A DNA stretch of 64,000 bases. Source: Candidatus Omnitrophota bacterium (GTDB lineage: Bacteria; Omnitrophota; Gorgyraeia; 2-01-FULL-45-10). Below, piece after piece: positions 1,574-63,932 of this stretch. The notes under the pieces were generated by a model. That model had not been told where the DNA came from. It ran no database searches and was given only the letters and a program-made list of their open reading frames with translations. The stretch spans positions 20,578 to 84,577 of the forward strand of contig CAIMPC010000073.1 of the NCBI GenBank assembly GCA_903843285.1, in the 5' to 3' direction. The position numbers and the translations under genes were made by a program. Position 1 is the first letter of the stretch. Every line of letters begins with the position of its first letter.

Positions 1574-1620
1574 GATGGCGTCCCCATGGGGATTCGAACC
1601 CCAGTCGTCAGAATGAAAAT
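1574..1620. repeat. 47-bp perfect direct repeat of the 3' end of tRNA-Glu (att-like island boundary)
   Basis: gatggcgtccccatggggattcgaaccccagtcgtcagaatgaaaat is identical to 6921..6967; covers acceptor 3' strand, T-arm and part of anticodon arm of tRNA-Glu, sequence diverges immediately after. Confidence 0.85.
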
Positions 1621-1698
1621 ATTGTCTCTGTGAACGCTACTTCTAGATTATACTTTATAACTGTAGTATTTGCAAGGCTTTACAGAGCCGCTGTCAAG

Positions 1699-3138
1699 CC
1701 AAAATAGAAATGTCCTATAGTTACCAAAGTAGAAATGTCCTATTTCTATGCTACTGTCAGTAGTAGCCCTTTCTCTTTTGGGGCTACCTTTTCTCTTTGT
1801 TGATACTGTTGATAGTGTGTATTAATCTTAAAGCGCCTCCAGGGATGATCTTTAGGAACCGGCATATATATTCTCTTTGGCTTAAACGCCTTCCTTGGCT
1901 CCTCTTTCTTCGAACGGACGGTTATCTCTATAAACTTCAGCATAGTCTTCTTATGCCAGATGATCATATCCCCATCTATTCTATCCTCAACGATTACTTT
2001 ATCTGTCCTTATATTGTCAAGTATCTGATAGAGCTTACCGTTATGGATAATGGTAAAATCATTCCTTAGAAATCTCTTTGTCTTAATGCAGAGAATTCTA
2101 TCAATATCCATGCCCTTAGACACAGGGCGGTGAAGATCATCTGATTTTAGCGCTTTTACACTAAATCTCTTGGCATAAGCAGGCAAGAAGCGCTCAGCTA
2201 CTTTATTAGCATCTTCTATGGTCCTGGAGTCTTCTAACCTTAGTTCTTTTGTAAGGCGATCTTGGAATGTATTAAATAGCCTCTCTACCCTTCCTTTGGC
2301 CTGTGGCGAATTGGCGTGTATAACATCAACCCCAAGCTCTTTAAGAGCCCTCTCAAATTGGCTTAAAGGCACTATATTATTAAGCTCATCTTCCATAGAA
2401 GGCTTGCCCGTAGACTTATACGTCGAGTGCTTATCCAAATATACGCTTATAGGAATACCATACTTCTTAATGTAGCGCTTGAAGCTGTCCATAGCCGGAA
2501 TAGTACCTTCGTATTTATAGAACCTTCCAAATGGTGTGCCTGTAGCATCGTCTATGTAGCCCATAAAGACGCATTTAGGGCCTCTATCCTCAAGCCATGC
2601 GTGATGAGAACCGTCCATCTGAACCATTTGGCCGAAGTGGTGTTTACGCTCGCGCCATTGACGATGCGGGCGCTTCTTGCGCTTTTTATATGGGATACCC
2701 TCATCTATGAGCCAGAGTCTGAGCGTCTCATCATTTACTTTAAGCTTATCTCTTTCAAAGAGCTTCTCGCTTGCCAATGTCGGACCGAAGTCCGGATATT
2801 TATCCTTAAACAATGATATGATTCTGTCCTTATGCGGCAATATTCTATTGGAAGATCTGCCGCGTAACTTACGGACTATACCTTTGTCACCTTCCTCCCT
2901 CATTACACTTATCTTCCTTCGCACTTGCCGTTCGCTTATATCGATTGATTCAGCAGCTTCCTTCTGCGTAATCACCTTATCGATCGCCTTACGAAGTATA
3001 TGTAAAGCTCTTAATTCCTCCTGCGTAGCCATGATAATGTCCCTTCCTGCCATAATATCCTCCCTTAGAGAAGATCATTATAGCAACTTCAGAATAGGAC
3101 ATTCTTAAATTGGTAGAATAGGACATTATCACTTTGGG
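1699..3138 (-). mobile_element. Insertion sequence (~1.44 kb) with compound terminal inverted repeats, IS481/ISNCY-like
   Basis: Single transposase ORF flanked by ~45-bp imperfect inverted ends, each containing two copies of AATGTCCTAT 25 bp apart separated by ACCAA (left 1705..1743; right as reverse complement 3091..3130). Confidence 0.75.
1746..3053 (-). CDS. DDE transposase with N-terminal HTH and rve (integrase-core) domain
   Basis: 435 aa; N-terminal HTH (ISERQVRRKISVMREEG), catalytic-core signature HANSPQAKGRVERLFNTFQ typical of rve-type DDE transposases (IS481/IS3/ISNCY clade). Confidence 0.8.
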   Translation of the reverse strand: MAGRDIIMATQEELRALHILRKAIDKVITQKEAAESIDISERQVRRKISVMREEGDKGIVRKLRGRSSNRILPHKDRIISLFKDKYPDFGPTLASEKLFERDKLKVNDETLRLWLIDEGIPYKKRKKRPHRQWRERKHHFGQMVQMDGSHHAWLEDRGPKCVFMGYIDDATGTPFGRFYKYEGTIPAMDSFKRYIKKYGIPISVYLDKHSTYKSTGKPSMEDELNNIVPLSQFERALKELGVDVIHANSPQAKGRVERLFNTFQDRLTKELRLEDSRTIEDANKVAERFLPAYAKRFSVKALKSDDLHRPVSKGMDIDRILCIKTKRFLRNDFTIIHNGKLYQILDNIRTDKVIVEDRIDGDMIIWHKKTMLKFIEITVRSKKEEPRKAFKPKRIYMPVPKDHPWRRFKINTHYQQYQQREKVAPKEKGLLLTVA

Positions 3139-3329
3139 ATGACATAGTCAATAACAAGATTTTTAATTTATCTACCTTTTTACCTAACATTTTCATATCT
3201 TCAACATTTGAACTTATAAAATAGTCTCTCATACAAACGATTATTTGATTCAGAGCTTTTATGCTCAATCAGTGTAGGTAATCACCGGAATGATACCAAT
3301 AATAATCATCGTGGTTCCTCGTATATAAA

Positions 3330-3914
3330 TCATACCAATAATAGTAGCTTTCTCTTCGCCCGACTTATAAGAGACGCAACCGTGTTAGCCGGAATATCCA
3401 TGATACTGGCTATGTCATCCTGTGTCTTACCGTCATAGACCTTAAGCCTTAATGCCCTTCTCTCCTTAATTCTGAGATTAGCCATCGACTCTTCAAGCCG
3501 TGACACCGCTTCCTTGGTTTCAACCAATTGTGCCGGATCAGGGTGCTTGCACGGGATGACATCCTCTAGGGTAGTAGTGACATCTTCGGATAGCCTATCA
3601 CTTAGAGACATTGTCATCCTGTCTATATTATTCCGCTTCCTACGATAAACTGCCATTTGATTCATCGTCACAATGGCAAGCCAGCCAGTTAAACATGAAA
3701 TATCCCGCAACTGGGCCAGCTTGTTATCTTCCCATAGCATCAAGAATACTTCCTGGGCTATATCATCAACATCGTTTATAGGTGCCCTGTAGCTCGTTTT
3801 ATAGAGCTTATAATAGACGACCTTTCGCACAATGCTTTGATGCTGCCGGATGAACTCGTTCCATGCAACCTTGTCCTTCCTTATGCAACGGCTTACCATT
3901 TCTTCTGTACTCAT
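3330..3914 (-). CDS. ECF-type RNA polymerase sigma-70 factor (group 4)
   Basis: 194 aa; sigma region 2 (DIAQEVFLMLWE) and region 4 HTH (ALRLKVYDGKTQDDIASIMDIPANTVASLISRAKRKL). SD aaagggga precedes ATG. Confidence 0.8.
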   Translation of the reverse strand: MSTEEMVSRCIRKDKVAWNEFIRQHQSIVRKVVYYKLYKTSYRAPINDVDDIAQEVFLMLWEDNKLAQLRDISCLTGWLAIVTMNQMAVYRRKRNNIDRMTMSLSDRLSEDVTTTLEDVIPCKHPDPAQLVETKEAVSRLEESMANLRIKERRALRLKVYDGKTQDDIASIMDIPANTVASLISRAKRKLLLLV

Positions 3915-4226
3915 ACTGGTCCCCTTTCTGGTCGGACAATAAAAAAGCGAACGCTTATCTATTAGATTTAATAGAAGAGCCTTCGCTATTTACTGTGACC
4001 TATTTAAACTATTTTAGTAACTTGGCACAAAAAGCCCCGTCAACCTTTCGATCGCCGGGGAATGGGTGGGGCACGAAATGAAGATCTATTTCAGATTATA
4101 ATGTCTCTCGGGTGTCGCGGGAATTTTTGCTGGAAAAATTGGTGCCTGATCTTGCTTGCTCACTGATAGGGTGTACCCGAATAGGACGTCTGCTATTAGC
4201 TCAATATCCATATCACTCGATCTTAT

Positions 4227-4523
4227 TCATACGGCGTTCTCGTTAAACAATTTCCGCACATTTTTTTTATGGGTTTCATATAATTCTAAGTCGTTATTTT
4301 CTCTTGCTTTGATTGCTTTCGATTCTTCCTCAATAATTGCATTCTTTATTTCATCTGGCAAAGCGTTCATTTTTTTCCAAAAGATTGATTCGTCTTGGAT
4401 TCTTTTTAGGCTATCTGCTCGTTCTTTTTTGTTATGTGTGCAGGCAAACGATATAGCTGAGATAATAGCTAGCCATTTAAAAAATGAATATTTAATTTTG
4501 GTATAAATATTGTCTTGTTTCAT
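4227..4523 (-). CDS. Hypothetical small secreted/lipoprotein-like helical protein
   Basis: 98 aa, N-terminal hydrophobic signal-like segment (FFKWLAIISAISFAC) followed by charged helical region; AT-rich island cargo. Confidence 0.4.
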   Translation of the reverse strand: MKQDNIYTKIKYSFFKWLAIISAISFACTHNKKERADSLKRIQDESIFWKKMNALPDEIKNAIIEEESKAIKARENNDLELYETHKKNVRKLFNENAV

Positions 4524-4619
4524 AAGACTCCTTTATTTAATCAACTCTGTTGGACCACACAGCACAGTATTATAAATATCTTTTTCATCACTCGCTATTT
4601 TGGTAAATTTTTCTGAAAT

Positions 4620-4940
4620 CTAAAACTTATTAAAAGCTATGATTGCCCAAGTAATGATACTGCCTATTATAAGTATTCTTATAAAAGTTGAGTTTAGAAA
4701 ATACCCTAGTATATCTAATTTTAATCCAACTCTATCTTTAAGTGGCTTCGATTTCGTGTGGCATTTATAACATACATAATTAGAATGCTCATTTGGATAA
4801 TTGTATATATCGAGCGAGGATATGGAAATTTGTTTTCCGCATTTTGAGCAAGGCCATAGGCGAACATTATGACAATAATAACATGTGGTGTCCTCTAAAA
4901 TTGATGCTACTTTTTCGCAATATGGACATTGTGACGCCAT
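4620..4940 (-). CDS. Double zinc-ribbon protein with C-terminal transmembrane helix (candidate anti-sigma factor)
   Basis: 106 aa with four CxxC pairs (CPYC, CYYC, CSKC, CYKC) then hydrophobic helix IRILIIGSIITWAIIAF; cotranscribed orientation with ECF sigma. Confidence 0.45.
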   Translation of the reverse strand: MASQCPYCEKVASILEDTTCYYCHNVRLWPCSKCGKQISISSLDIYNYPNEHSNYVCYKCHTKSKPLKDRVGLKLDILGYFLNSTFIRILIIGSIITWAIIAFNKF

Positions 4941-4990
4941 GCCACACCTCCGTTATTTCATCTTTAATATGCGCACTAGTAATCTTCTCG

Positions 4991-5314
4991 CTATTGTGAG
5001 CGTACAAATGCAATAAACGCCGCTAATAAACATATGCCATATACGATTAGATATGTTTTAAAAATCTGTAGCCAGTTCAAAGACTGCTTCTTCACCACTG
5101 TAAAGTTAAAGCTATAAGAAATTGGGAGGTTTTCGGCATTGCGCACATACCAAATCGGTTGTTTTATCCTATAAGATTTAAGCGGTATAATTGGAAGCCA
5201 AAAGATAGAAATCCATAATGTAGTATCAAGCTCCTCCGCTTCATTTTCTTTGTCTTCTACATAATTAGACTTTCCAAAATGTCTAGTTCCACAGCCATTT
5301 GTGCTACTCGGCAC
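4991..5314 (-). CDS. Hypothetical membrane protein
   Basis: 107 aa, two hydrophobic segments; island cargo, no recognisable family. Confidence 0.35.
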   Translation of the reverse strand: MPSSTNGCGTRHFGKSNYVEDKENEAEELDTTLWISIFWLPIIPLKSYRIKQPIWYVRNAENLPISYSFNFTVVKKQSLNWLQIFKTYLIVYGICLLAAFIAFVRSQ

Positions 5315-5435
5315 ATTAAACCTCCATTATTTTATCAGCTCTGTTATTGTAGTATTTAACGTCTGGGGATTCCATACATCGCATATACTTTTCCAAGAAA
5401 ACTGCGCTGTGCAATATAGGCAATATTTCCTACGA

Positions 5436-5726
5436 TTATAAATAAGCCGCCAATCCACGCACAGATTGTTCCGATGATATTACAAACCCTTGCTGCAGAC
5501 AATGCGCTACTTTTTCCCATGCTACTCTCTTTAATCCGCCTGAGATAAGTATAGACCAAGTTTTATTTGGAAAAGTAATCTGAAAGCCTAATGTTTTGTC
5601 ATAATATCCTTTTGCATTTTTACATTTTTCCACCATAGAATAAATAAGTGCCCCTAACAAAAATAATATAAAAAAAGTCCAGTTATTCTCATTTTTTGTT
5701 ATCCTGCTTAACAATATTTTATTCAA
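5436..5726 (-). CDS. Hypothetical small membrane protein (overlaps alternative-frame ORF 5356..5559; possible frameshifted single gene)
   Basis: 96 aa with N-terminal TM helix FFILFLLGALIYSMV; overlapping 67-aa hydrophobic ORF in another frame suggests frameshift or one spurious call. Confidence 0.3.
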   Translation of the reverse strand: MNKILLSRITKNENNWTFFILFLLGALIYSMVEKCKNAKGYYDKTLGFQITFPNKTWSILISGGLKRVAWEKVAHCLQQGFVISSEQSVRGLAAYL

Positions 5727-5822
5727 TCTCTATCTTTTAAAAGCAAGTATATAGTTACCGGCATGAAGGCATTGCTCATTATCCTATCGGTCTCTTTACC
5801 GCATAGGGATAAAGTTAAGATT

Positions 5823-6743
5823 TTATTCGAGCTTCTTAAAAGAAATATAAAAATTCATTTCTTCGCTCGGATTAACCGGGGAAAGAACCACTAATCGCAA
5901 ATTTCCTTCCCGATCAATGTCAGCATGCCCTGCTGCTTTATCGCGTAAAAAAGAAGTTTGTCGATATTTACTAGTGTCCAAGAAAAACTGCGATGTCAAT
6001 ACCGCGCACTTAGAGACAAAGCCTTTCTCCTCGTAAATCAGACTGCTAATCACGAACTGATAATTATTCTTGCAGCTTAACCCTAATATTATTTCTTCCT
6101 TATCGGTCCTATACCAATGTGCGGATATGTCTAACCTCAGTCCCTTCTCGAAATACCTCTTATAAATGACATCAATTGTTGTCTCTTGTATAAGTAGTGA
6201 GCTCAGGCGCTTGATGTCAATAAACATTTTTTTATTTATTACTCTAACATCTCTGATAAATGGATTTGTTTCGTAATTATTAAACTCTTCATTAGATGCC
6301 ACAGGAAACAATTCAACATTTTCCTTCAAGGGCGTAGTTACAAAAGAGACTATGGGAACTAGTGGGAATTTGATTTTGTATTCCGCTTCTTGTGTCAGCC
6401 AAAAACTACCTTTGTTCCCAAATATGTTACTGCTCTTTATGATCACGCTAGATATAACCGGTGACACAAGTGGCGTTACTGAGTTATTAACCCATATTGA
6501 TGAAAGCGTAGTAACGATTACAACTAAAATCGGTGATATTTTTTCTTTCTTAAACGACCATTGGTATGTTAAGATGTTTAAAAATATAAGCACCCATACG
6601 GTCCAACATAAGCCTATCCATTCCGGAATTATTCTTTTAGACAATAGCGCAGATAGTATTGCCGCTGCAATAGCTATTATGATCCAATAACATATTCTTA
6701 TCGTTTTCATGTGCCTGCCTAATATTCTCAATACCCGAATCAT
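5823..6743 (-). CDS. Hypothetical membrane protein (3 N-terminal TM helices plus ~200-aa soluble domain)
   Basis: 306 aa; strongly hydrophobic N-terminus then unrecognisable soluble domain; first gene of the island operon. Confidence 0.4.
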   Translation of the reverse strand: MIRVLRILGRHMKTIRICYWIIIAIAAAILSALLSKRIIPEWIGLCWTVWVLIFLNILTYQWSFKKEKISPILVVIVTTLSSIWVNNSVTPLVSPVISSVIIKSSNIFGNKGSFWLTQEAEYKIKFPLVPIVSFVTTPLKENVELFPVASNEEFNNYETNPFIRDVRVINKKMFIDIKRLSSLLIQETTIDVIYKRYFEKGLRLDISAHWYRTDKEEIILGLSCKNNYQFVISSLIYEEKGFVSKCAVLTSQFFLDTSKYRQTSFLRDKAAGHADIDREGNLRLVVLSPVNPSEEMNFYISFKKLE

Positions 6744-6920
6744 GATTTAACAAAAAAGCAACCCTTTGGAGGTTGCCAAGCGTTCAATCCATTTTGATTG
6801 TATTTATCAATCATCCTCCGGGGACCGTACGGGGACTATAATACCATAAAATACCACTAAATCCCATTATTTGCCATTAACACGAGTTTAGCTCTAACTA
6901 CTTGCTACTGCTACTTTTAA

Positions 6921-6967
6921 GATGGCGTCCCCATGGGGATTCGAACCCCAGTCGTCAGAATGAAAAT
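6921..6967. repeat. Second copy of the 47-bp direct repeat (within/adjacent to intact tRNA-Glu)
   Basis: Identical to 1574..1620. Confidence 0.85.
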
Positions 6968-7000
6968 CTGATGTCCTAGGCCAGACTAGACGATGGGGAC
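6923..7000 (-). tRNA. tRNA-Glu (anticodon UUC)
   Basis: Minus-strand sequence GTCCCCATCGTCTAG...CAGATTTTCATTCTG...GGGGTTCGAATCCCCATGGGGACGCCA; cloverleaf with anticodon loop UUUUCAU, close match to canonical bacterial tRNA-Glu, encoded CCA. Confidence 0.9.
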
Positions 7001-9636: not shown

Positions 9637-13458
<3,822 letters not shown>

Positions 13459-13495
13459 TCATTATTACTATTTATTTATACCATTACTCCGACTC

Positions 13496-13846
13496 TTATT
13501 TTTTTATATCGCCTATTCGGAACCTGATCTCTTTAATCTTCTTTCCTTTTAATTGCAACTCCAAGGATTTTACCAACTCCTGTTTTCGGATGCTCAGCTC
13601 GTACAACCAGCTCGAGTTAGCCACATCGATCACCAGACTTGCCTTCTTAAACGATACGGGCTTCGCATGCCTGGCCGCGGCCTCGCCCGCTGAAATTCGC
13701 CACGCATCTTCGATCTCTTCTTTGCCCAGACGCTCCTTACCGCTCAGGCCTTCTATCACATTGCCGATCAGCTCGCTAAAATGCTCGGCCCCCTTGGGCT
13801 TATGCTTAGATCGGCTGTCGGGGCATGACGACATATACATATTCAT
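13496..13846 (-). CDS. DUF721-domain protein (DciA-like candidate helicase loader / small RNA-binding-like protein)
   Basis: 116 aa; WRISAGEAAARHAKPVSFKKASLVIDVANSSWLYELSIRKQELVKSLELQLKGKKIKEIRFRIG matches DUF721 pattern; positioned between gyrB and dnaN where recF/DUF721 usually sit; 41-nt overlap with dnaN. Confidence 0.6.
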   Translation of the reverse strand: MNMYMSSCPDSRSKHKPKGAEHFSELIGNVIEGLSGKERLGKEEIEDAWRISAGEAAARHAKPVSFKKASLVIDVANSSWLYELSIRKQELVKSLELQLKGKKIKEIRFRIGDIKK

Positions 13847-14906
13847 CCGCTATTCTGACGACTCCCGGTTTCTCCGCATCTACGAGCTCGAGCGCCACGG
13901 TCTCTTGATCGACGTTCTTAAGAAGGCTTACCAGATAGTCGGGGTTGAATCCTATAGACAGGTCCTTCCCTTTATACTGAACGTCGAGGGCCACCCGAGC
14001 CTCGCCCGTATGGGGATCGCTCTTAGACAGGACTATCTTATCTTTGGATGCATCCACCCTAATAAACATCGAGTCGGGACTGGTAAACAGCGCGACTCTT
14101 TTTATCGCGCCCAGAAGCGCGGTCCTGGAAACAACCATTTTATCTTTGGCCTCTTCCGGTATCACCCGTTCATAGTTGGGAAATTCCCCCTCTATAAGCC
14201 TCGATACTAGCTTCGTCGTCCCCGTATCAAACATTACCTGTTTCTCCGCAACCGATATCTTCACATCGCCATCGTCGGTAAGCATCCTGTCCAACTCGCT
14301 CACCGCCTTGGCCGGCAATATAAACTTTCCCTCGAGCGTTTTTGGCAGTTGCATCTTCTCCTCGGTCATAGCCAGACACCTGCCATCGGTGGCGACTAAC
14401 CTTAGGTGGGAGGGTTTCAATACAAACAATATACCGTTAAGCACATGTCTTATCTCATCATGCCCCGCCGCAAAACCCGTTCTGCGGAGTAGCGTCTTCA
14501 GCCTCGCCTGCTTCAGTGTAATATAATTCTTATCTTTAAACTCAGGGGGTTTGGAAAACTCTTCCTCCGACAGCCCCATAATTTTAAAATTACTATTCCC
14601 GCATTCTATGTTGATAATATTATTCTTTTTCACTGATATTGATATAATTTCGTCCGGCAGTTCTTTTATAATCTCCGCCAGCTTCTTTGCCGGCACCGTT
14701 ATAGCGCCCGTAATGGATGGCTTAACAGGTATGACTGTAATTATACCGATATTAAAATCTGTCGCTGTCAGGGTTATATTATCATTCGTTGCTTCCATTA
14801 ATATGTGGGACAAGATCGGTTGAATGGTTTTTGAATCAATAACAGTCTGTACGCTCTGTATCCCTTTTAATAATAAATCTTTTGGCGCCGATATTTTCAT
14901 TCCCAA
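13806..14906 (-). CDS. dnaN: DNA polymerase III beta sliding clamp
   Basis: 366 aa, three-domain clamp similarity, downstream of dnaA. Confidence 0.9.
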   Translation of the reverse strand: MGMKISAPKDLLLKGIQSVQTVIDSKTIQPILSHILMEATNDNITLTATDFNIGIITVIPVKPSITGAITVPAKKLAEIIKELPDEIISISVKKNNIINIECGNSNFKIMGLSEEEFSKPPEFKDKNYITLKQARLKTLLRRTGFAAGHDEIRHVLNGILFVLKPSHLRLVATDGRCLAMTEEKMQLPKTLEGKFILPAKAVSELDRMLTDDGDVKISVAEKQVMFDTGTTKLVSRLIEGEFPNYERVIPEEAKDKMVVSRTALLGAIKRVALFTSPDSMFIRVDASKDKIVLSKSDPHTGEARVALDVQYKGKDLSIGFNPDYLVSLLKNVDQETVALELVDAEKPGVVRIADEYVYVVMPRQPI

Positions 14907-14959
14907 AAACTCCCTTCTATTAATAAGTATTTAAAGATAGTAATAATCGTAGTAATGGC

Positions 14960-14968
14960 TGTGGATAA
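14960..14968 (-). promoter_or_regulatory. DnaA box (perfect TTATCCACA, reverse orientation)
   Basis: tgtggataa in dnaA-dnaN intergenic AT-rich spacer. Confidence 0.7.
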
Positions 14969-15038
14969 GTGTGTAACTCACTAACTGCTTATATACCAAT
15001 AAGTTGAGAAATTGTAATCCGCTAAAATAAGAGACTAC

Positions 15039-15047
15039 TTATCCACA
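15039..15047 (+). promoter_or_regulatory. DnaA box (perfect TTATCCACA)
   Basis: ttatccaca 22 bp downstream of dnaA stop; paired with box at 14960. Confidence 0.7.
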
Positions 15048-15068
15048 CAGCCAACAGGATATAAACCG

Positions 15069-16445
15069 CTATCCCTTAATACTTTCTATTAAGCGGTCCA
15101 ATAAAATCGTAAAACCCTCTTTAGTCTTCAAATCCCCTTCCACTTTAGAGCAGGCGTGCATTACAGTGGTATGGTCACGCCCGCCAAACTGATCCCCTAT
15201 CTCGGGAAGCGAGTATTCCGTGAGTTGCCTGGCCAGATACATCGCCACCTGCCTCGGGTATGCGATAGCTTTAGAACGCTTCTTCGCCCTCATATCCGAT
15301 AGTTTGATGTCGAAGTATTCGCTGACCTTTCGCTGTATAAGATCGATCGTGACCTTCTTCTCGCCCTCGATTATCATGTCCTTTAAAACTTCCTTCGCAA
15401 GCTCCACCGAAACAGTCTTGCCTATGAGCTTAGAATAGGCGACGACGCGTATTAAAGCACCTTCGAGCTCTCTGATGTTTGTCTTAACTTTCTCGGCGAG
15501 AAAATAGAATATGTCCTCACCGAGAGATGTGCCCGCCAACTCCGACTTTCTCTTTAGTATGGCGATCCTCGTCTCGAAATCAGGCGGCTGGATGTCGGTA
15601 ACCAGGCCATACAAGAACCGCGATACCAGGCGCTCTTCCAGCTTATTGATCTCCTTTGGCGGGCGGTCGCTCGTGACAACGATTTGCTTGTGGGCGTCGT
15701 ATAAAGTGTTGAAGGTGTGGAAAAACTCTTCCTGGGTGGAGTCTTTCCCCGCTATAAAATGTACGTCATCTATCAATAATAGATCGACGCTGCGGTACTT
15801 ATCCCTGAATTTAGTCATCGTGCGATTTTGAATCGCGCCTATCATCTCATTGCAGAAGTCCTCGCTGGATATATATAGTATCTTAACCTTCGGATTCTTT
15901 TGAAGCACACAATCGCCTATAGCATGCATTATGTGAGTCTTGCCGAGGCCGGTGCCCCCGTATATGAATAATGGATTATAGGCTTTAGCCAGGGAGTCTG
16001 ATACCGCCATCGCCGCCGCGTGAGCAAATCTATTAGACGGCCCGATGACGAAACTGTCAAATGTATATTTGGGGTTCAGGCCTATCTCTCCGGCGTGGTC
16101 CGAAATGTGTTTTGAAAAAGGCCAAAAACCTTTAGCCTCTTTTCTCTCCCCATCTTTTTTAGCGCTATCAGGGATCGCCGGCGCCGGCAGGCGATCATTC
16201 AATACGAATTCAATAGCTATATTAGCACCGCACGCCCTCCTGACGCCGGAATTGATAATAGGCATATATCTATTCATAAGCCAGTCCTGACAGAATTTGT
16301 TGGGGATCTCGAGAATCATCTTTTCCGACGTGCATGAAGAGCAGTTGATAGGACCGAACCATATATTAAAGGTTTGCTCATTATCGAGATCCTTCCTTAT
16401 ATGTTCTAGAGCCTTACTCCAGGCCGTGGCACCGGAATTACTCAT
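15069..16445 (-). CDS. dnaA: Chromosomal replication initiator DnaA
   Basis: 458 aa; AAA+ Walker A GGTGLGKTHIMHAIG, C-terminal DNA-binding domain. Confidence 0.95.
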   Translation of the reverse strand: MSNSGATAWSKALEHIRKDLDNEQTFNIWFGPINCSSCTSEKMILEIPNKFCQDWLMNRYMPIINSGVRRACGANIAIEFVLNDRLPAPAIPDSAKKDGERKEAKGFWPFSKHISDHAGEIGLNPKYTFDSFVIGPSNRFAHAAAMAVSDSLAKAYNPLFIYGGTGLGKTHIMHAIGDCVLQKNPKVKILYISSEDFCNEMIGAIQNRTMTKFRDKYRSVDLLLIDDVHFIAGKDSTQEEFFHTFNTLYDAHKQIVVTSDRPPKEINKLEERLVSRFLYGLVTDIQPPDFETRIAILKRKSELAGTSLGEDIFYFLAEKVKTNIRELEGALIRVVAYSKLIGKTVSVELAKEVLKDMIIEGEKKVTIDLIQRKVSEYFDIKLSDMRAKKRSKAIAYPRQVAMYLARQLTEYSLPEIGDQFGGRDHTTVMHACSKVEGDLKTKEGFTILLDRLIESIKG

Positions 16446-16463
16446 ATATTCCTTAATCTGTGG

Positions 16464-16472
16464 TTATCCACA
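16464..16472 (+). promoter_or_regulatory. DnaA box (perfect TTATCCACA) within tgtggTTATCCACAa; second near-box TTATTCACA at 16507..16515; adjacent AT-rich stretch 16561..16616 (candidate oriC/DUE)
   Basis: Located in rpmH-dnaA divergent intergenic region where transcription polarity of the whole window switches. Confidence 0.65.
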
Positions 16473-16610
16473 ATATAATCCGCGTAATCCTACGTAAAAT
16501 AACAAGTTATTCACATGTTGTGCACAGTTGAATTGGATGTAAAACAAAGGCAACATGCGCTATTATATAAAAGTATTTTCGCTAATGCAAGGAAAATTGA
16601 AATTAAATTA

Positions 16611-16638
16611 TTGACTGAAGGGGGCGATGTGCTATAAT
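16611..16638 (+). promoter_or_regulatory. Sigma-70 promoter of rpmH (TTGACT-16-TGcTATAAT, extended -10)
   Basis: ttgact at 16611..16616, tgctataat ending 16638, 16-nt spacer; SD aagggagaga before ATG 16678. Confidence 0.65.
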
Positions 16639-16677
16639 CTACTTCGCGATTAACGCAAAAAAGGGAGAGAAGAAAAA

Positions 16678-16815
16678 ATGAAATTAGGATTAAAACCAAA
16701 GTCAAATATAAAGAGAAAGAGAAAGCACGGATTCAGAAAGAGAATGAGCGATCGCTGGGGCAGGGAAGTCCTGAGAAGGCGCAGAAAAAAGGGACGTCAC
16801 AAGCTGACGGTATGA
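16678..16815 (+). CDS. rpmH: 50S ribosomal protein L34
   Basis: 45-aa [48 protein letters not shown] (below ORF-track cut-off), canonical L34; stop overlaps rnpA start. Confidence 0.9.
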
Positions 16816-17204
16816 CGGTTAGCGAAGACCGAACAGGCAGACGCTTAATCTCCGACGAGAAATTTAGCAAAAATGAGCATATGCTCAAGTCCGGAGAGTT
16901 CAGGGCCGTATATAAAAACGGCAGGTCTGTAAGGAGTGAGGGTTTTGTATTGTCTGTCGCAGGAAACGGCCTGGAGCATAACCGGCTCGGTTTTTCTATA
17001 AGCTCCTCATGTATAAAGCGCGCCCACATCAGAAACCGGATTCGCAGATTATTCCGCGAAGTTTATAGGAAGAACAAACCTTTATTTAAAAAAGCTTATG
17101 ATATCGTGATAATTGTGAGAAAAAACCCAGGGGACAACCTGTTTTATGAGAATGCGCATCGGATATTATTATCATTGGCAAGCAAGGCCGAAATATTAGC
17201 ATGA
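16812..17204 (+). CDS. rnpA: Ribonuclease P protein component
   Basis: 130 aa basic protein following rpmH; RNase P protein-like ([23 protein letters not shown]). Confidence 0.8.
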
Positions 17205-17419
17205 TATACTTAAAAAAATTGGTATTAGGCGCCTTAAATATATATCGTAAGTACTTATCCCCCATGAAGATACGGTGTTGCAGGTTCTATCCCTCCTGCT
17301 CCGATTATGCAATAGAAGCTATAGAAAAGCACGGGCTATTAGAAGGCTCATTTAAGGGACTCAAAAGGATTTTACGCTGCCAGCCATTTTCTGCGGGCGG
17401 GTATGATCCAGTAAGGTGA
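17201..17419 (+). CDS. yidD: Membrane protein insertion efficiency factor YidD
   Basis: 72 aa; YRKYLSP...CRFYPSCSDYAIEAIEKHG signature. Confidence 0.9.
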   Translation: MIYLKKLVLGALNIYRKYLSPMKIRCCRFYPSCSDYAIEAIEKHGLLEGSFKGLKRILRCQPFSAGGYDPVR

Positions 17420-24859: not shown

Positions 24860-24934
24860 GGCGGCTTAGCCAAGCGGTAAGGCAGAGGTCTGCAAAACCT
24901 CTATTCTCCGGTTCGAATCCGGAAGCCGCCTCCA
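24860..24934 (+). tRNA. tRNA-Cys (anticodon GCA)
   Basis: GGCGGCTTAGCC...GGTCTGCAAAACC...GGTTCGAATCCGGAAGCCGCCTCCA cloverleaf; anticodon loop CUGCAAA. Confidence 0.9.
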
Positions 24935-25021
24935 GTTTTGTATTGATTCTCGATAGCAAAACTGTCCCATGAAGTCATAGCATTACAGTTGACGGAATTG
25001 GGACAATATATAATGTTTTAC

Positions 25022-25098
25022 GGGCAGTTAGCGCAGTTGGTTAGCGCACCACGTTGACATCGTGGGGGTCAGAGGTTCGAGTCCTCTACTGCCCACCA
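25022..25098 (+). tRNA. tRNA-Val (anticodon GAC)
   Basis: GGGCAGTTAGCGCAGTTGGTTAGCGCACCACGTTGACATCGTGG...GGTTCGAGTCCTCTACTGCCCACCA; anticodon loop UUGACAU. Confidence 0.9.
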
Positions 25099-25369
25099 GT
25101 TCTTTGGTTTGACAGTAGTATGGTGATTAGCGCAGGAGGACGAGTCCTCTCATGGGAAGGCATGAGCGAGCCTAATGTGGGACTATTGCAAAATGACAAA
25201 TTCCACGTCATTCTGAACGAAGCCCAAAGGGCGAAGCGAAGAATCTATACGGTAAATAGATTCTTCGGTCGGCCGATGGCCTCCCTCAGAATGACGGAAG
25301 TTGCATTTCGCAAAAGTCCCGAAGTAGCCGAGCCCAATATCTGTAGTTGCAAGTTGACACGGTATCATC

Positions 25370-25456
25370 GCCGGGATGGCGAAATTGGCAGACGCAAGGG
25401 ATTTAAAATCCCTCGGCCGCAAGGCCATGTGGGTTCGACCCCCTCTCCCGGCACCA
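25370..25456 (+). tRNA. tRNA-Leu (anticodon UAA), long variable arm
   Basis: GCCGGGATGGCGAAATTGGCAGACGCAAGGGATTTAAAATCCCT + variable arm CGGCCGCAAGGCC + T-arm + CCGGCACCA. Confidence 0.9.
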
Positions 25457-31578: not shown

Positions 31579-31906
31579 TTGGCGAAGGACTGAGGAGCTT
31601 TGCAGAGCTTGCTTTTGGTAAATTTTATGATACACTTTAGATAGAAGAAAAATATCCCTGCGGTGCGCGCGATTTTGATCGAATAATCTTGAACCTTTAG
31701 CACTAAAATAGGGAGCCTAACTAAGTGTACGCCACGGCGTATGCGCGAGGGCACCCACCTGTTATAAACAGGATCAAGATAATTCAAATCTCAACGCCAC
31801 TCGCGGGGATTTTTATTGGCTCGCGATATTTTTAGCTATAGCGTACGGGCGGCTACCCAATCAGCCACTACCATACAGATGAAGCAATTAAATGTAGCGG
31901 GGGATT

Positions 31907-63029: not shown

Positions 63030-63103
63030 TGACGGGTTGTGTAACGGTAGCACAGCAGACTCTGGATCTGCTTGTCTAGGTTCAAATCCTAGCCCGTCAG
63101 CCA
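63030..63103 (+). tRNA. tRNA-Gln (anticodon CUG)
   Basis: TGACGGGTT...GCAGACTCTGGATCTGC...CTAGGTTCAAATCCTAGCCCGTCAGCCA; U1:A72 pair typical of bacterial tRNA-Gln; directly downstream of glnS. Confidence 0.85.
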
Positions 63104-63141
63104 CCGTACCATTCGCAAGGTATCTGAATATTAGGAGAAGC

Positions 63142-63169
63142 TTGCTTTTATCGATATATTGGATATAAT
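63142..63169 (+). promoter_or_regulatory. Sigma-70-like promoter TTGCTT-16-TATAAT
   Basis: ttgctt 63142..63147, tataat 63164..63169, 12 nt before ATG 63182. Confidence 0.5.
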
Positions 63170-63181
63170 AAGTACCCCAGT

Positions 63182-63673
63182 ATGATAATATACGAAGATA
63201 TATTCAGGGAATTTCAGAAACATAAGGTGCGGTATGCGCTTGTGGGAGGCATAGCTTTTAATCTTCTGGGTGGCAATAGGAATACCCTTGACATGGATAT
63301 TCTTGCTGAAATGACGGATTCCAATCTTCGTAAAATAGTGAATATTCTTAAAAAAGCCGGTTATCATGTGAAGCAACCGGTGAATCCGATCGACGTGGCG
63401 GACGCTAAAATCCGAAAAGATTGGATAAAGAATAAAAATATGAAAGCCCTAAATTTTTATAAGGGCGATGAAACCTACGAAGAGGTTGACTTAATAATAG
63501 GCTCATCTGTTGATTATGACGAGGCTAGTAAAGACGTGATGAATATAAATGTTGGATCGTTGAAGCTTTCGGTTATTTCACCGAAGAAATTAATTAAGAT
63601 GAAGATAGAAGCAGGCCGTGATATTGATCTGCTCGATGTCAAAGCTCTGAAAATTTTGATGAGAAGAAAATAA
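63182..63673 (+). CDS. Hypothetical protein, possible nucleotidyltransferase-fold
   Basis: 163 aa; N-terminal ALVGGIAFNLLGGNRNTLDMDIL resembles NTase G-x-D-x-D signature; weak. Confidence 0.35.
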   Translation: MIIYEDIFREFQKHKVRYALVGGIAFNLLGGNRNTLDMDILAEMTDSNLRKIVNILKKAGYHVKQPVNPIDVADAKIRKDWIKNKNMKALNFYKGDETYEEVDLIIGSSVDYDEASKDVMNINVGSLKLSVISPKKLIKMKIEAGRDIDLLDVKALKILMRRK

Positions 63674-63831
63674 TGTTTGGCTGGGAATCGGAAAAGGCTA
63701 AGATACTTCGTGGCGCTAAAATATCCGTGGGAAAAAAAATGGAAGCTTTTCGCTTAATGAACGAATTGGGCGATAGAGTGCTGACTTTGCGCCAGAAAAT
63801 CGTCAGAAGACAGTTGAGACAAGGGCGATAA
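63673..63831 (+). CDS. Small basic hypothetical protein (52 aa), start overlaps upstream stop (ATAATG)
   Basis: MFGWESEKAKILRGAKISVGKKMEAFRLMNELGDRVLTLRQKIVRRQLRQGR; translationally coupled to 63182..63673; below ORF-track cut-off. Confidence 0.3.
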   Translation: MFGWESEKAKILRGAKISVGKKMEAFRLMNELGDRVLTLRQKIVRRQLRQGR

Positions 63832-63847
63832 TCGGATAAACTTTTAA

Positions 63848-63932
63848 GCGGAGATGGTGGAACTGGCAGACACGCATGTTTGAGGGGCATGTGCCGCAAG
63901 GCTTGGGGGTTCAAATCCCCCTCTCCGCACCA
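63848..63932 (+). tRNA. tRNA-Leu (anticodon GAG), long variable arm
   Basis: GCGGAGATGGTGGAACTGGCAGACACGCATGTTTGAGGGGCATG + variable arm + GGGGGTTCAAATCCCCCTCTCCGCACCA. Confidence 0.85.

Follow-up and report, generated by a model that had tools for sequence, protein, structure and literature searches.

Does a run of neighbouring genes on one strand form one functional unit? This question is raised by positions 3330-6743 of a 64,000-nt stretch of DNA (hereafter the window) from a Candidatus Omnitrophota bacterium (contig CAIMPC010000073.1), where a set of genes for membrane-associated proteins (p295, p96, p67, p107, p106 and p98, hereafter the cargo) is followed on the minus strand by a gene for an extracytoplasmic function (ECF) sigma factor. 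An earlier note had taken the stretch for a horizontally acquired six-gene operon that ends in the sigma gene and forms a self-contained envelope-signalling module, with the cysteine-rich membrane protein p106 as an anti-sigma-like component. Our analysis indicates instead that the stretch probably lies inside a ~5.35-kb decayed integrative island at the 3' end of a tRNA-Glu(TTC) gene, and that this island holds two unrelated modules. The island origin, the lack of recognisable families among the cargo proteins and the suspected frameshift of the earlier note all stood up to the analysis, whereas the single operon and the anti-sigma role of p106 did not. Every open reading frame (ORF) that it had listed was recovered on the minus strand at the same coordinates; the stretch actually holds seven ORFs, not six.

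A probable decayed island at the tRNA-Glu gene

A perfect direct repeat (47/47 nt; 6921-6967 and 1574-1620) brackets 5.35 kb of DNA at the 3' end of the tRNA-Glu(TTC) gene at 6923..7000, which has gyrA immediately upstream. Between the two copies lie, in this order, five or six ORFs of low guanine-plus-cytosine (GC) content, the sigma gene and an insertion sequence (IS) of the ISNCY family. The GC content is 0.35 in the cargo, 0.44 in the sigma module and 0.42 in the IS, as compared with 0.47-0.49 in the flanks. Together, the repeat derived from tRNA-Glu and the contrast between a cargo of 35% GC and flanks of 46-49% bear out the view that the cargo was horizontally acquired. The parts of the island, read from the tRNA gene to the far end, are listed here (TM, transmembrane).

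6923..7000, minus strand: tRNA-Glu(TTC) gene (ARAGORN; Rfam tRNA, 58.6 bits)
6921..6967, minus strand: attL-side repeat copy, the 3' 45 nt of tRNA-Glu plus 2 nt, 100% identical to the other copy
6747..6777, minus strand: terminator-like hairpin (8 bp) and T-run between the tRNA and the first cargo gene (consensus scan and reading of the sequence)
4227-6710, minus strand: cargo block (module A), five or six envelope-protein genes, 35% GC
5823..6743, minus strand: p306, or p295 (295 aa) from the likely start at 6710 (M12)
5436..5726, minus strand: p96, one N-terminal TM helix, weak start signals
5356..5559, minus strand: p67, more likely 54 aa (p54) from the ATG at 5520, one strongly hydrophobic TM helix
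4991..5314, minus strand: p107, GTG start, GGAGG Shine-Dalgarno sequence, hydrophobic stretch WISIFWLPIIPL, C-terminal TM helix
4620..4940, minus strand: p106, four CxxC pairs, C-terminal tail-anchor TM helix, GGAGGTG Shine-Dalgarno sequence
4227..4523, minus strand: p98, lipoprotein-type signal (lipobox ...SFAC, Cys28), AAGGAG Shine-Dalgarno sequence
3330-4137, minus strand: sigma module (module B), 44% GC
3330..3914, minus strand: ECF-type sigma factor, 194 aa (TIGR02937, PF08281 and a family profile)
1692..3144, minus strand: ISNCY-family IS with transposase at 1746..3053 (NF033594, 359 bits against a cut-off of 250)
1574..1620, minus strand: attR-side repeat copy, a partial tRNA-Glu 3' end at the far end of the island (repeat search)

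Searches of Pfam and NCBIfam gave no match to a site-specific recombinase among the eight main ORFs of the island, and its sole mobility gene is a DDE transposase that belongs to the IS, which has inverted repeats of its own. The island thus shows the direct repeats of a tRNA 3' end and the atypical composition that are expected of a tRNA-integrated element, without an integrase inside it. Because no integrase is encoded, it is best described as decayed, or as similar to the cis-mobilizable elements (CIMEs) discussed below. The 47-bp repeat could in principle have been a target duplication of the IS, an origin that is ruled out by the position of the IS ends (1692 and 3144), far from both copies.

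The attachment (att) site is polymorphic. In contigs from two assemblies (L030 and L031) the gyrA and tRNA-Glu genes are identical to those of the window, and from the tRNA 3' end onwards the DNA is a third sequence, which matches neither side of the island. This junction sequence (L030:3094-3386 and L031:3056-3348, the junction corresponding to window position 6923) contains a hairpin and T-run as well as repeated TAGTCAC/TAGACAC motifs that resemble recombinase arm sites, and after these comes an ORF start (MRDFFQDTKDMYECQYG). Its presence points to another element at this att site, or to a tandem insertion there. By exact look-up of the nagA-like and gyrA genes on either side we also retrieved many contigs that end inside the 47-bp repeat.

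The sigma gene and its leader

The sigma gene encodes a bona fide ECF (group 4) protein with regions 2 and 4. It scores 70.5 bits with TIGR02937 (cut-off 42.9) and 49.6 bits with PF08281 (cut-off 25.7), and a profile built from it and 12 homologues aligns over positions 4-195 with E. coli sigma-E (PDB 1or7, E 2.5e-16). It also matches phrog_1740, 'RNA polymerase sigma factor' (E 7e-21); in the viral contigs of IMG/VR it has no close relative, the best match being 26% identical.

If the cargo and the sigma gene formed one operon, we would expect no internal terminator, short gaps and a gene order that is conserved elsewhere. What we found is a gap of 312 nt between p98 and the sigma gene, holding two conserved elements that each consist of a hairpin and a T-run, as compared with gaps of 41-96 nt within the cargo. 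The greater part of this gap is a leader private to the sigma gene, with the following features.

3915..4137, minus strand: sigma leader, ~220 nt, conserved in loci L016 and L024 (alignments and fold)
5' part of the leader, before hairpin 1, minus strand: motif TTTCGTGCCCCACCC, also given as TTTCGTGCCCSACCC (three-way alignment)
4035..4060, minus strand: hairpin 1 (-14.6 kcal/mol), with its T-run at 4029..4034
3992..4021, minus strand: conserved promoter-like block GTTACTAAAA...CAGT
3946..3987, minus strand: conserved hairpin 2, 16-bp stem, with its T-run extending to 3941
After hairpin 2, minus strand: sigma Shine-Dalgarno sequence AAAGGGGA, within the conserved leader

Hairpin 1 and its T-run are kept in three copies, in which three of the 11 pairs are changed on both sides with pairing preserved; hairpin 2 and its T-run are likewise kept in three loci, with two pairs changed on both sides. 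The block GTTACTAAAA...CAGT between them looks promoter-like, to judge from its sequence, and the leader is the single match to this motif in the 64-kb window, with none before the cargo genes. No Rfam family matches the leader at E <= 1. DNA homology with the metagenomic locus L016 (76% identity) runs from 4128 to 3348 and so begins, at about 4128-4137, in the gap between p98 and the sigma gene, not in the cargo; both this homology and the step in GC content break at ~4130.

Locus L016 itself has two copies, 4 kb apart (L016:2661-2790 and 6643-6793), of the element of ~100 bp found ahead of the sigma gene, which is made up of the TTTCGTGCCCGACCCC motif, a hairpin and a T-run; the two copies flank the sigma gene, an XRE gene and four unknown genes. 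The repeats may delimit a cassette, or a terminator element may have been reused.

The genes around the sigma homologues differ from locus to locus. Upstream of the sigma gene there are five contexts, namely p98 in the window, lipase_3 in L016-L018, an overlapping ORF of 80 aa in L015, a protein of 589 aa in the contig of P0018, and nothing within 356 nt in L024. Downstream, the neighbour in the homologous loci is a convergent gene, either of XRE type or unknown; in L015 and L016 it is a convergent XRE-type helix-turn-helix gene. A tblastn search with every cargo protein found no match in the sigma-homologue loci. Accordingly, the co-occurrence survey proposed in the earlier note turned out negative in both directions, as none of five contexts of sigma homologues carries a cargo ORF, and none of four p295-homologue contexts carries a sigma gene or any other cargo ORF. 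The gene order of 3330-6743 is conserved in no related locus. A single operon ending in the sigma gene is hard to maintain when the gap contains terminator-like elements and a private leader that elsewhere stands behind unrelated genes, and a self-contained signalling module finds no backing in nine related loci where sigma gene and cargo do not occur together. As far as the DNA alone allows us to judge, the sigma gene would be transcribed independently of the cargo, an outcome that the earlier note had itself named as speaking against its proposal.

The pairing of the sigma factor with p106 fares no better. An ECF sigma/anti-sigma operon has an adjacent, co-transcribed anti-sigma gene; here the sigma gene is followed by the IS, and p98 lies 312 nt upstream. 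Nor does p106 contain the HxxxCxxC motif within a zf-HC2 domain that marks zinc-binding anti-sigma (ZAS) proteins (regular expression and Pfam), with no zf-HC2 match at E <= 1 and no adjacency to the sigma gene. Moreover, since only three residues lie beyond its TM helix, p106 has no external sensor domain.

The region downstream of the sigma gene appears to be disturbed. At the C-terminus of the sigma factor, the final ~5 residues differ from those of all 12 homologues, and the DNA homology with L016 ends at the same place, at ~3348. The inverted repeats of the IS are imperfect (1692-1744 and 3093-3144), and reading of its flanks revealed no visible target-site duplication. The absence of this duplication, together with the break of both the sigma C-terminus and the L016 homology at ~3348, suggests that DNA beyond the 3' end of the sigma gene was deleted or rearranged. 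Several repeats were observed in this region and in a related one. Each end of the IS has two tandem subterminal repeats of ~20 bp (CCAAAnTAGAAATGTCCTAT) within the inverted repeat. A 16-bp direct repeat occurs at 3289-3304 (AATGATACCAATAATA) and 3328-3343 (AATCATACCAATAATA), 39 nt apart, and one of its copies covers the aberrant final codons of the sigma gene together with the stop, where homology to other sigma loci ends; it may be a rearrangement scar. In L015 the 3' end of the sigma gene recurs ~1.1 kb downstream as part of a direct repeat of 130 nt (L015:2095-2224 and 3184-3313, 76% identity), which again points to rearrangement in the surroundings of this clade.

The cargo genes and their relatives

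ORFs of 60 aa or more on the minus strand occupy 85% of 4140..6760, as compared with a mean of 6% and a maximum of 41% in 1000 dinucleotide-preserving shuffles, and such packing is therefore not due to chance. Strong Shine-Dalgarno sequences precede p98, p106 and p107. As the earlier note had supposed, the cargo ORFs belong to no recognisable family, for Pfam, NCBIfam, PHROGs and PADLOC give no credible assignment, and no cargo protein matched PHROGs at E < 0.01. In the protein collection p107, p98, p96 and p67 are present solely as the sequences of their own genome, and these four have no relatives among viral contigs, GenBank phages or plasmids.

The first gene, annotated as an ORF of 306 aa, most likely starts at M12 (6710) and yields a product of 295 aa, because gene callers use 6710 and the homologue P0002 aligns from there, and because the ATG at 6743 has no Shine-Dalgarno sequence and directly follows the hairpin and T-run. 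The protein has two to three N-terminal TM helices and a beta-rich domain of ~215 aa, and an AlphaFold2 model built from a two-sequence alignment shows three N-terminal helices and a beta-rich C-terminal domain (pLDDT, predicted local distance difference test, 61.8). A Foldseek search of the PDB with this model returned meaningless matches (template-modelling scores ~0.22), and a profile search of PDB sequences returned no match. Its family is very small. Among 5.8 billion clustered proteins we found p295 itself and one homologue (P0002, 45% identity), and scans of GTDB genomes and JGI metagenomes added L011, a metagenome-assembled genome (MAG) of an uncultured member of the Planctomycetia (39%), and three short contigs. 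The homologues are 36-45% identical overall, and the Planctomycetia MAG is the sole genome-resolved relative; no relatives were found in IMG/VR viral contigs, GenBank phages or plasmids.

The neighbours of the p295 homologues vary. In L007 they include a fragment of a PglX-like methyltransferase, TcmP (TIGR04474, 196 bits) and a DUF5131 partner. In L011 (2042-2251) and L014 (1713-1853) a gene for a CcrB-like large serine recombinase lies directly 3' of an intact p295 homologue and is truncated to 69 and 46 codons, respectively, which hints that p295 is retained while adjacent recombinase genes decay. L014 also has a fragment that resembles an S24 peptidase by eye, with no match in either family library. 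The TM proteins encoded upstream of the p295 homologues (300 aa in L011, 255 aa in L007) are unrelated to one another and to p295. A PADLOC match of p295 to PDC-M02B (E 0.0012) was considered and ruled out, as neither P0002 nor the L011 and L014 homologues reproduce it.

p106 is the second cargo protein with relatives. Its CxxC pairs begin at residues 5, 20, 31 and 57 of a double zinc-ribbon-like N-terminal domain of ~65 aa, and its TM helix is followed by three residues only; the protein would thus be tail-anchored, with its zinc-ribbon domain facing the cytoplasm. Two true homologues, P0027 (44%) and P0037 (32%), emerged from a full HMMER scan of 1.84 billion representatives; both conserve all eight cysteines and the TM helix. 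Against DZR (PF12773) p106 scores 17.7 bits, below the gathering threshold of 27.3, and is not a member by the Pfam criterion; a profile search of PDB sequences gave only chance matches to eukaryotic zinc fingers (E >= 0.09), and the viral, phage and plasmid collections contain no relatives. The searches that had been proposed for p106 and p295 brought homologues of both to light and gave neither a family assignment.

p98 is predicted to be a lipoprotein from a lipobox pattern that we take to be of the PS00013 type (LAIISAISFAC, with Cys28 within the range 15-35 and K2), and the part after the signal, of ~70 aa, is highly charged.

The overlapping ORFs at 5356..5726 are compatible with a frameshift, as had been suspected. 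The upstream frame (p96) encodes a TM helix and ~50 further residues, and its last ~28 codons are probably the helix of the downstream ORF read out of frame; the start signals of p54 are weak. One A added to the A5 run at 5511..5515 would fuse the frames of p96 and p67 into a two-TM protein of 123 aa. The overlap is 100% identical in contigs from four independent assemblies (L002, L008, L009 and L010), which rules out an error of assembly or sequencing. A -1 ribosomal slip on GAAAAAG would yield the same join. Because by our own assessment GAAAAAG is not a canonical slippery heptamer, the simplest reading is a fixed 1-nt deletion at the A5 run, resulting in a pseudogene or a split gene.

Proposed origin of the two modules and their significance

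The following course of events could account for the locus. An integrative element would have entered the 3' end of tRNA-Glu(TTC) by site-specific recombination, and the ISNCY-family IS would have landed in the island after integration. Genes for recombination and regulation would later have disappeared from the element, probably through the IS, leaving two remnants that share only their strand. Module A would comprise the polytopic p295, the frameshift-split two-TM gene (p96 and p54), p107, the tail-anchored p106 and the small lipoprotein p98. Module B would be a stand-alone sigma gene, insulated from module A by the conserved hairpin and T-run and expressed from its own leader. We suggest that the sigma factor is most likely an orphaned regulator brought in by a mobile element, in view of its match to a phage sigma PHROG and of the convergent XRE-type repressor genes beside two of its relatives; the downstream partners of the sigma gene would have been lost here to an IS-associated deletion. 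For module A we infer, with low confidence, a set of accessory envelope proteins of the mobile element, acting for example in exclusion or envelope modification and not in a sigma/anti-sigma pathway.

Among known systems, the element comes closest to decayed, CIME-like tRNA islands, and the sigma gene to the ECF sigma factors of mobile elements. A CIME keeps attL and attR without integration genes, as described for remnants of streptococcal integrative and conjugative elements and integrative and mobilizable elements (PMC5704250). Like the island described here, CIMEs and decayed tRNA islands have perfect repeats of a tRNA 3' end, an anomalous composition and no integration or transfer genes. 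The presence of a different sequence at the same tRNA end in other contigs is a further likeness, as would be expected of a hot spot or of accretion. The locus differs in that no cognate integrase or helper element was identified, in that the host is uncultured, and in that the cargo is unrelated to known CIME cargo.

The likeness of the sigma gene to other systems is also partial. In classical ECF modules the sigma gene comes first, the anti-sigma gene next, and the two are co-transcribed. As in the sigma-E/RseA, SigW/RsiW and SigR/RsrA pairs, there is a true ECF sigma factor with a cysteine-rich membrane protein encoded nearby; in contrast to them, no co-directional gene follows the sigma gene, and the cysteine-rich protein is encoded two genes upstream, beyond a terminator. 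p106 also differs from the members of ZAS pairs, as it has neither HxxxCxxC nor an anti-sigma domain and does not co-occur with the sigma gene elsewhere. It resembles the DZR membrane proteins, in that its four CxxC motifs form two ribbon-like knuckle pairs ahead of a TM helix; unlike them, it is sub-threshold, with three family members detected among the 1.84 billion representatives. The sigma factors of mobile elements (PHROG 1740) are a better comparison, with relatives of our sigma gene standing beside genes for an XRE-type repressor, DUF2958 and HTH_17 excisionase-like proteins, a neighbourhood that fits a regulatory switch on a mobile element. The differences are that the sigma factor has no close relative in IMG/VR and that its downstream partner genes are missing in the window.

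Several points weigh against this interpretation. All genes lie on the same strand and terminators can leak, so that transcription of the cargo may to some extent run on into the sigma gene. The sigma gene of L015 (59% identical) is the last gene of a tight cluster, overlapping the preceding ORF by 4 nt, and this arrangement demonstrates that sigma-last operons exist in the family. The contigs that carry p106 homologues are just 0.5 and 1 kb long, too short to reveal linkage with a sigma gene. The cargo may be silent, as no promoter was identified and the terminator-like hairpin at 6747..6777 sits 37 nt before the likely start of p295. Both structure models are of low confidence (pLDDT about 62), and an accessory envelope role of the cargo for the mobile element is a guess, which we hold with low confidence. 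Lastly, exact look-ups of the nagA-like and gyrA flanks recovered no contig with an empty site, and the mobility of the island is thus putative.

How well do other explanations account for the same data? It would be tempting to see in the whole stretch an operon for envelope stress, in which p106 is a membrane-anchored zinc anti-sigma factor holding the ECF sigma factor while the other proteins act as sensors or accessories. The genes are indeed close together on one strand, no other anti-sigma candidate adjoins the sigma gene, the cysteine-rich, putatively zinc-binding cytoplasmic domain and TM helix of p106 give it a superficial likeness to single-pass anti-sigma factors, and L015 provides a precedent for the sigma gene coming last. 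Against this, p98 and the sigma gene are separated by the conserved hairpin and T-run and by the private leader; the breaks in GC and homology coincide at ~4130; and sigma gene and cargo fail to occur together in any of nine related loci. In addition, p106 matches neither HxxxCxxC, zf-HC2 nor another anti-sigma domain, has no sensor domain and is separated from the sigma gene by p98 and 312 nt, and the promoter-like motif of the sigma gene is absent elsewhere in the 64-kb window. We therefore consider such an operon very unlikely. An origin of the cargo from a prophage at tRNA-Glu, as a lysis or superinfection-exclusion cassette with holin-like TM proteins, a spanin-like lipoprotein and an exclusion protein, is improbable, if somewhat less so. 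Small proteins with one or two TM helices, a small lipoprotein and a polytopic protein in an att-flanked low-GC island would suit it, and relatives of p295 stand beside serine-recombinase fragments, a phage-type DUF5131 gene and, by eye only, an S24-peptidase-like fragment. Yet there is no endolysin, phage structural or replication gene; the cargo proteins have no significant match in PHROGs and no relative in IMG/VR viral contigs, GenBank phages or plasmids; and the single weak PADLOC match (PDC-M02B, E 0.0012) is not reproduced by three homologues.

Another possibility is that the cargo is non-functional debris of a dead mobile element, its ORFs being relics, some of them spurious, unexpressed and under no selection. 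One gene is apparently split by a frameshift, the start signals of p96 and p54 are weak, the terminator-like hairpin right before the first gene leaves no room for a promoter, the integrase has been lost and an IS inserted, and p107, p98, p96 and p67 have no detected homologues. However, four long ORFs remain open in DNA of 35% GC, where stop codons are frequent, with a coverage of 85% as compared with at most 41% in shuffles; p98, p106 and p107 have canonical Shine-Dalgarno sequences; the p295 and p106 families are conserved at 32-45% identity with invariant motifs; and in L011 and L014 the p295 homologue is intact beside a truncated recombinase gene. We regard debris as unlikely, though deserving some weight. 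A last thought, to which we give only a small chance, is that the locus harbours something undescribed. The cargo could be a multi-component envelope system of mobile elements, with p295 as its core together with p106, p98 and the small TM proteins, acting in entry exclusion or defence; or the two-hairpin leader of the sigma clade could be a new cis-regulatory attenuator that controls a mobile-element-borne sigma factor. A decayed tRNA-Glu island with two unrelated modules is the explanation that we prefer.

Elsewhere in the window, the neighbourhood of the origin (~13450..17400) contains dnaA (15069..16445), after which come dnaN, a DciA-family gene and gyrB-gyrA on the minus strand, and the GC skew changes sign at ~16500; from the dnaA region and this change the island can be placed ~10 kb from the likely replication origin. 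The gyrB gene (9637..13449, minus strand) encodes 1270 aa with an intein, PF14890 (Intein_splicing) being recorded for an identical protein in L027. A 6S RNA gene lies at 31652..31813 on the plus strand (Rfam RF00013, 61.9 bits), and further tRNA genes lie at 24860-25453 and 63030-63929.

What is new here is confined to the p295 and p106 families and the two-hairpin sigma leader; current understanding is unchanged, and the interest of the locus is modest. The case illustrates that genes which adjoin on one strand of an island are to be named an operon or module only after the boundaries between them have been checked, for the pieces here are kept apart by a GC step, a conserved terminator and a private leader. 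It also documents, in an uncultured bacterium, an integration hot spot at tRNA-Glu ~10 kb from the origin, whose occupant is att-flanked and without an integrase. Finally, it defines two very small protein families, those of p295 and p106, and a clade of ECF sigma factors with a structured leader that seemingly travels with mobile elements.

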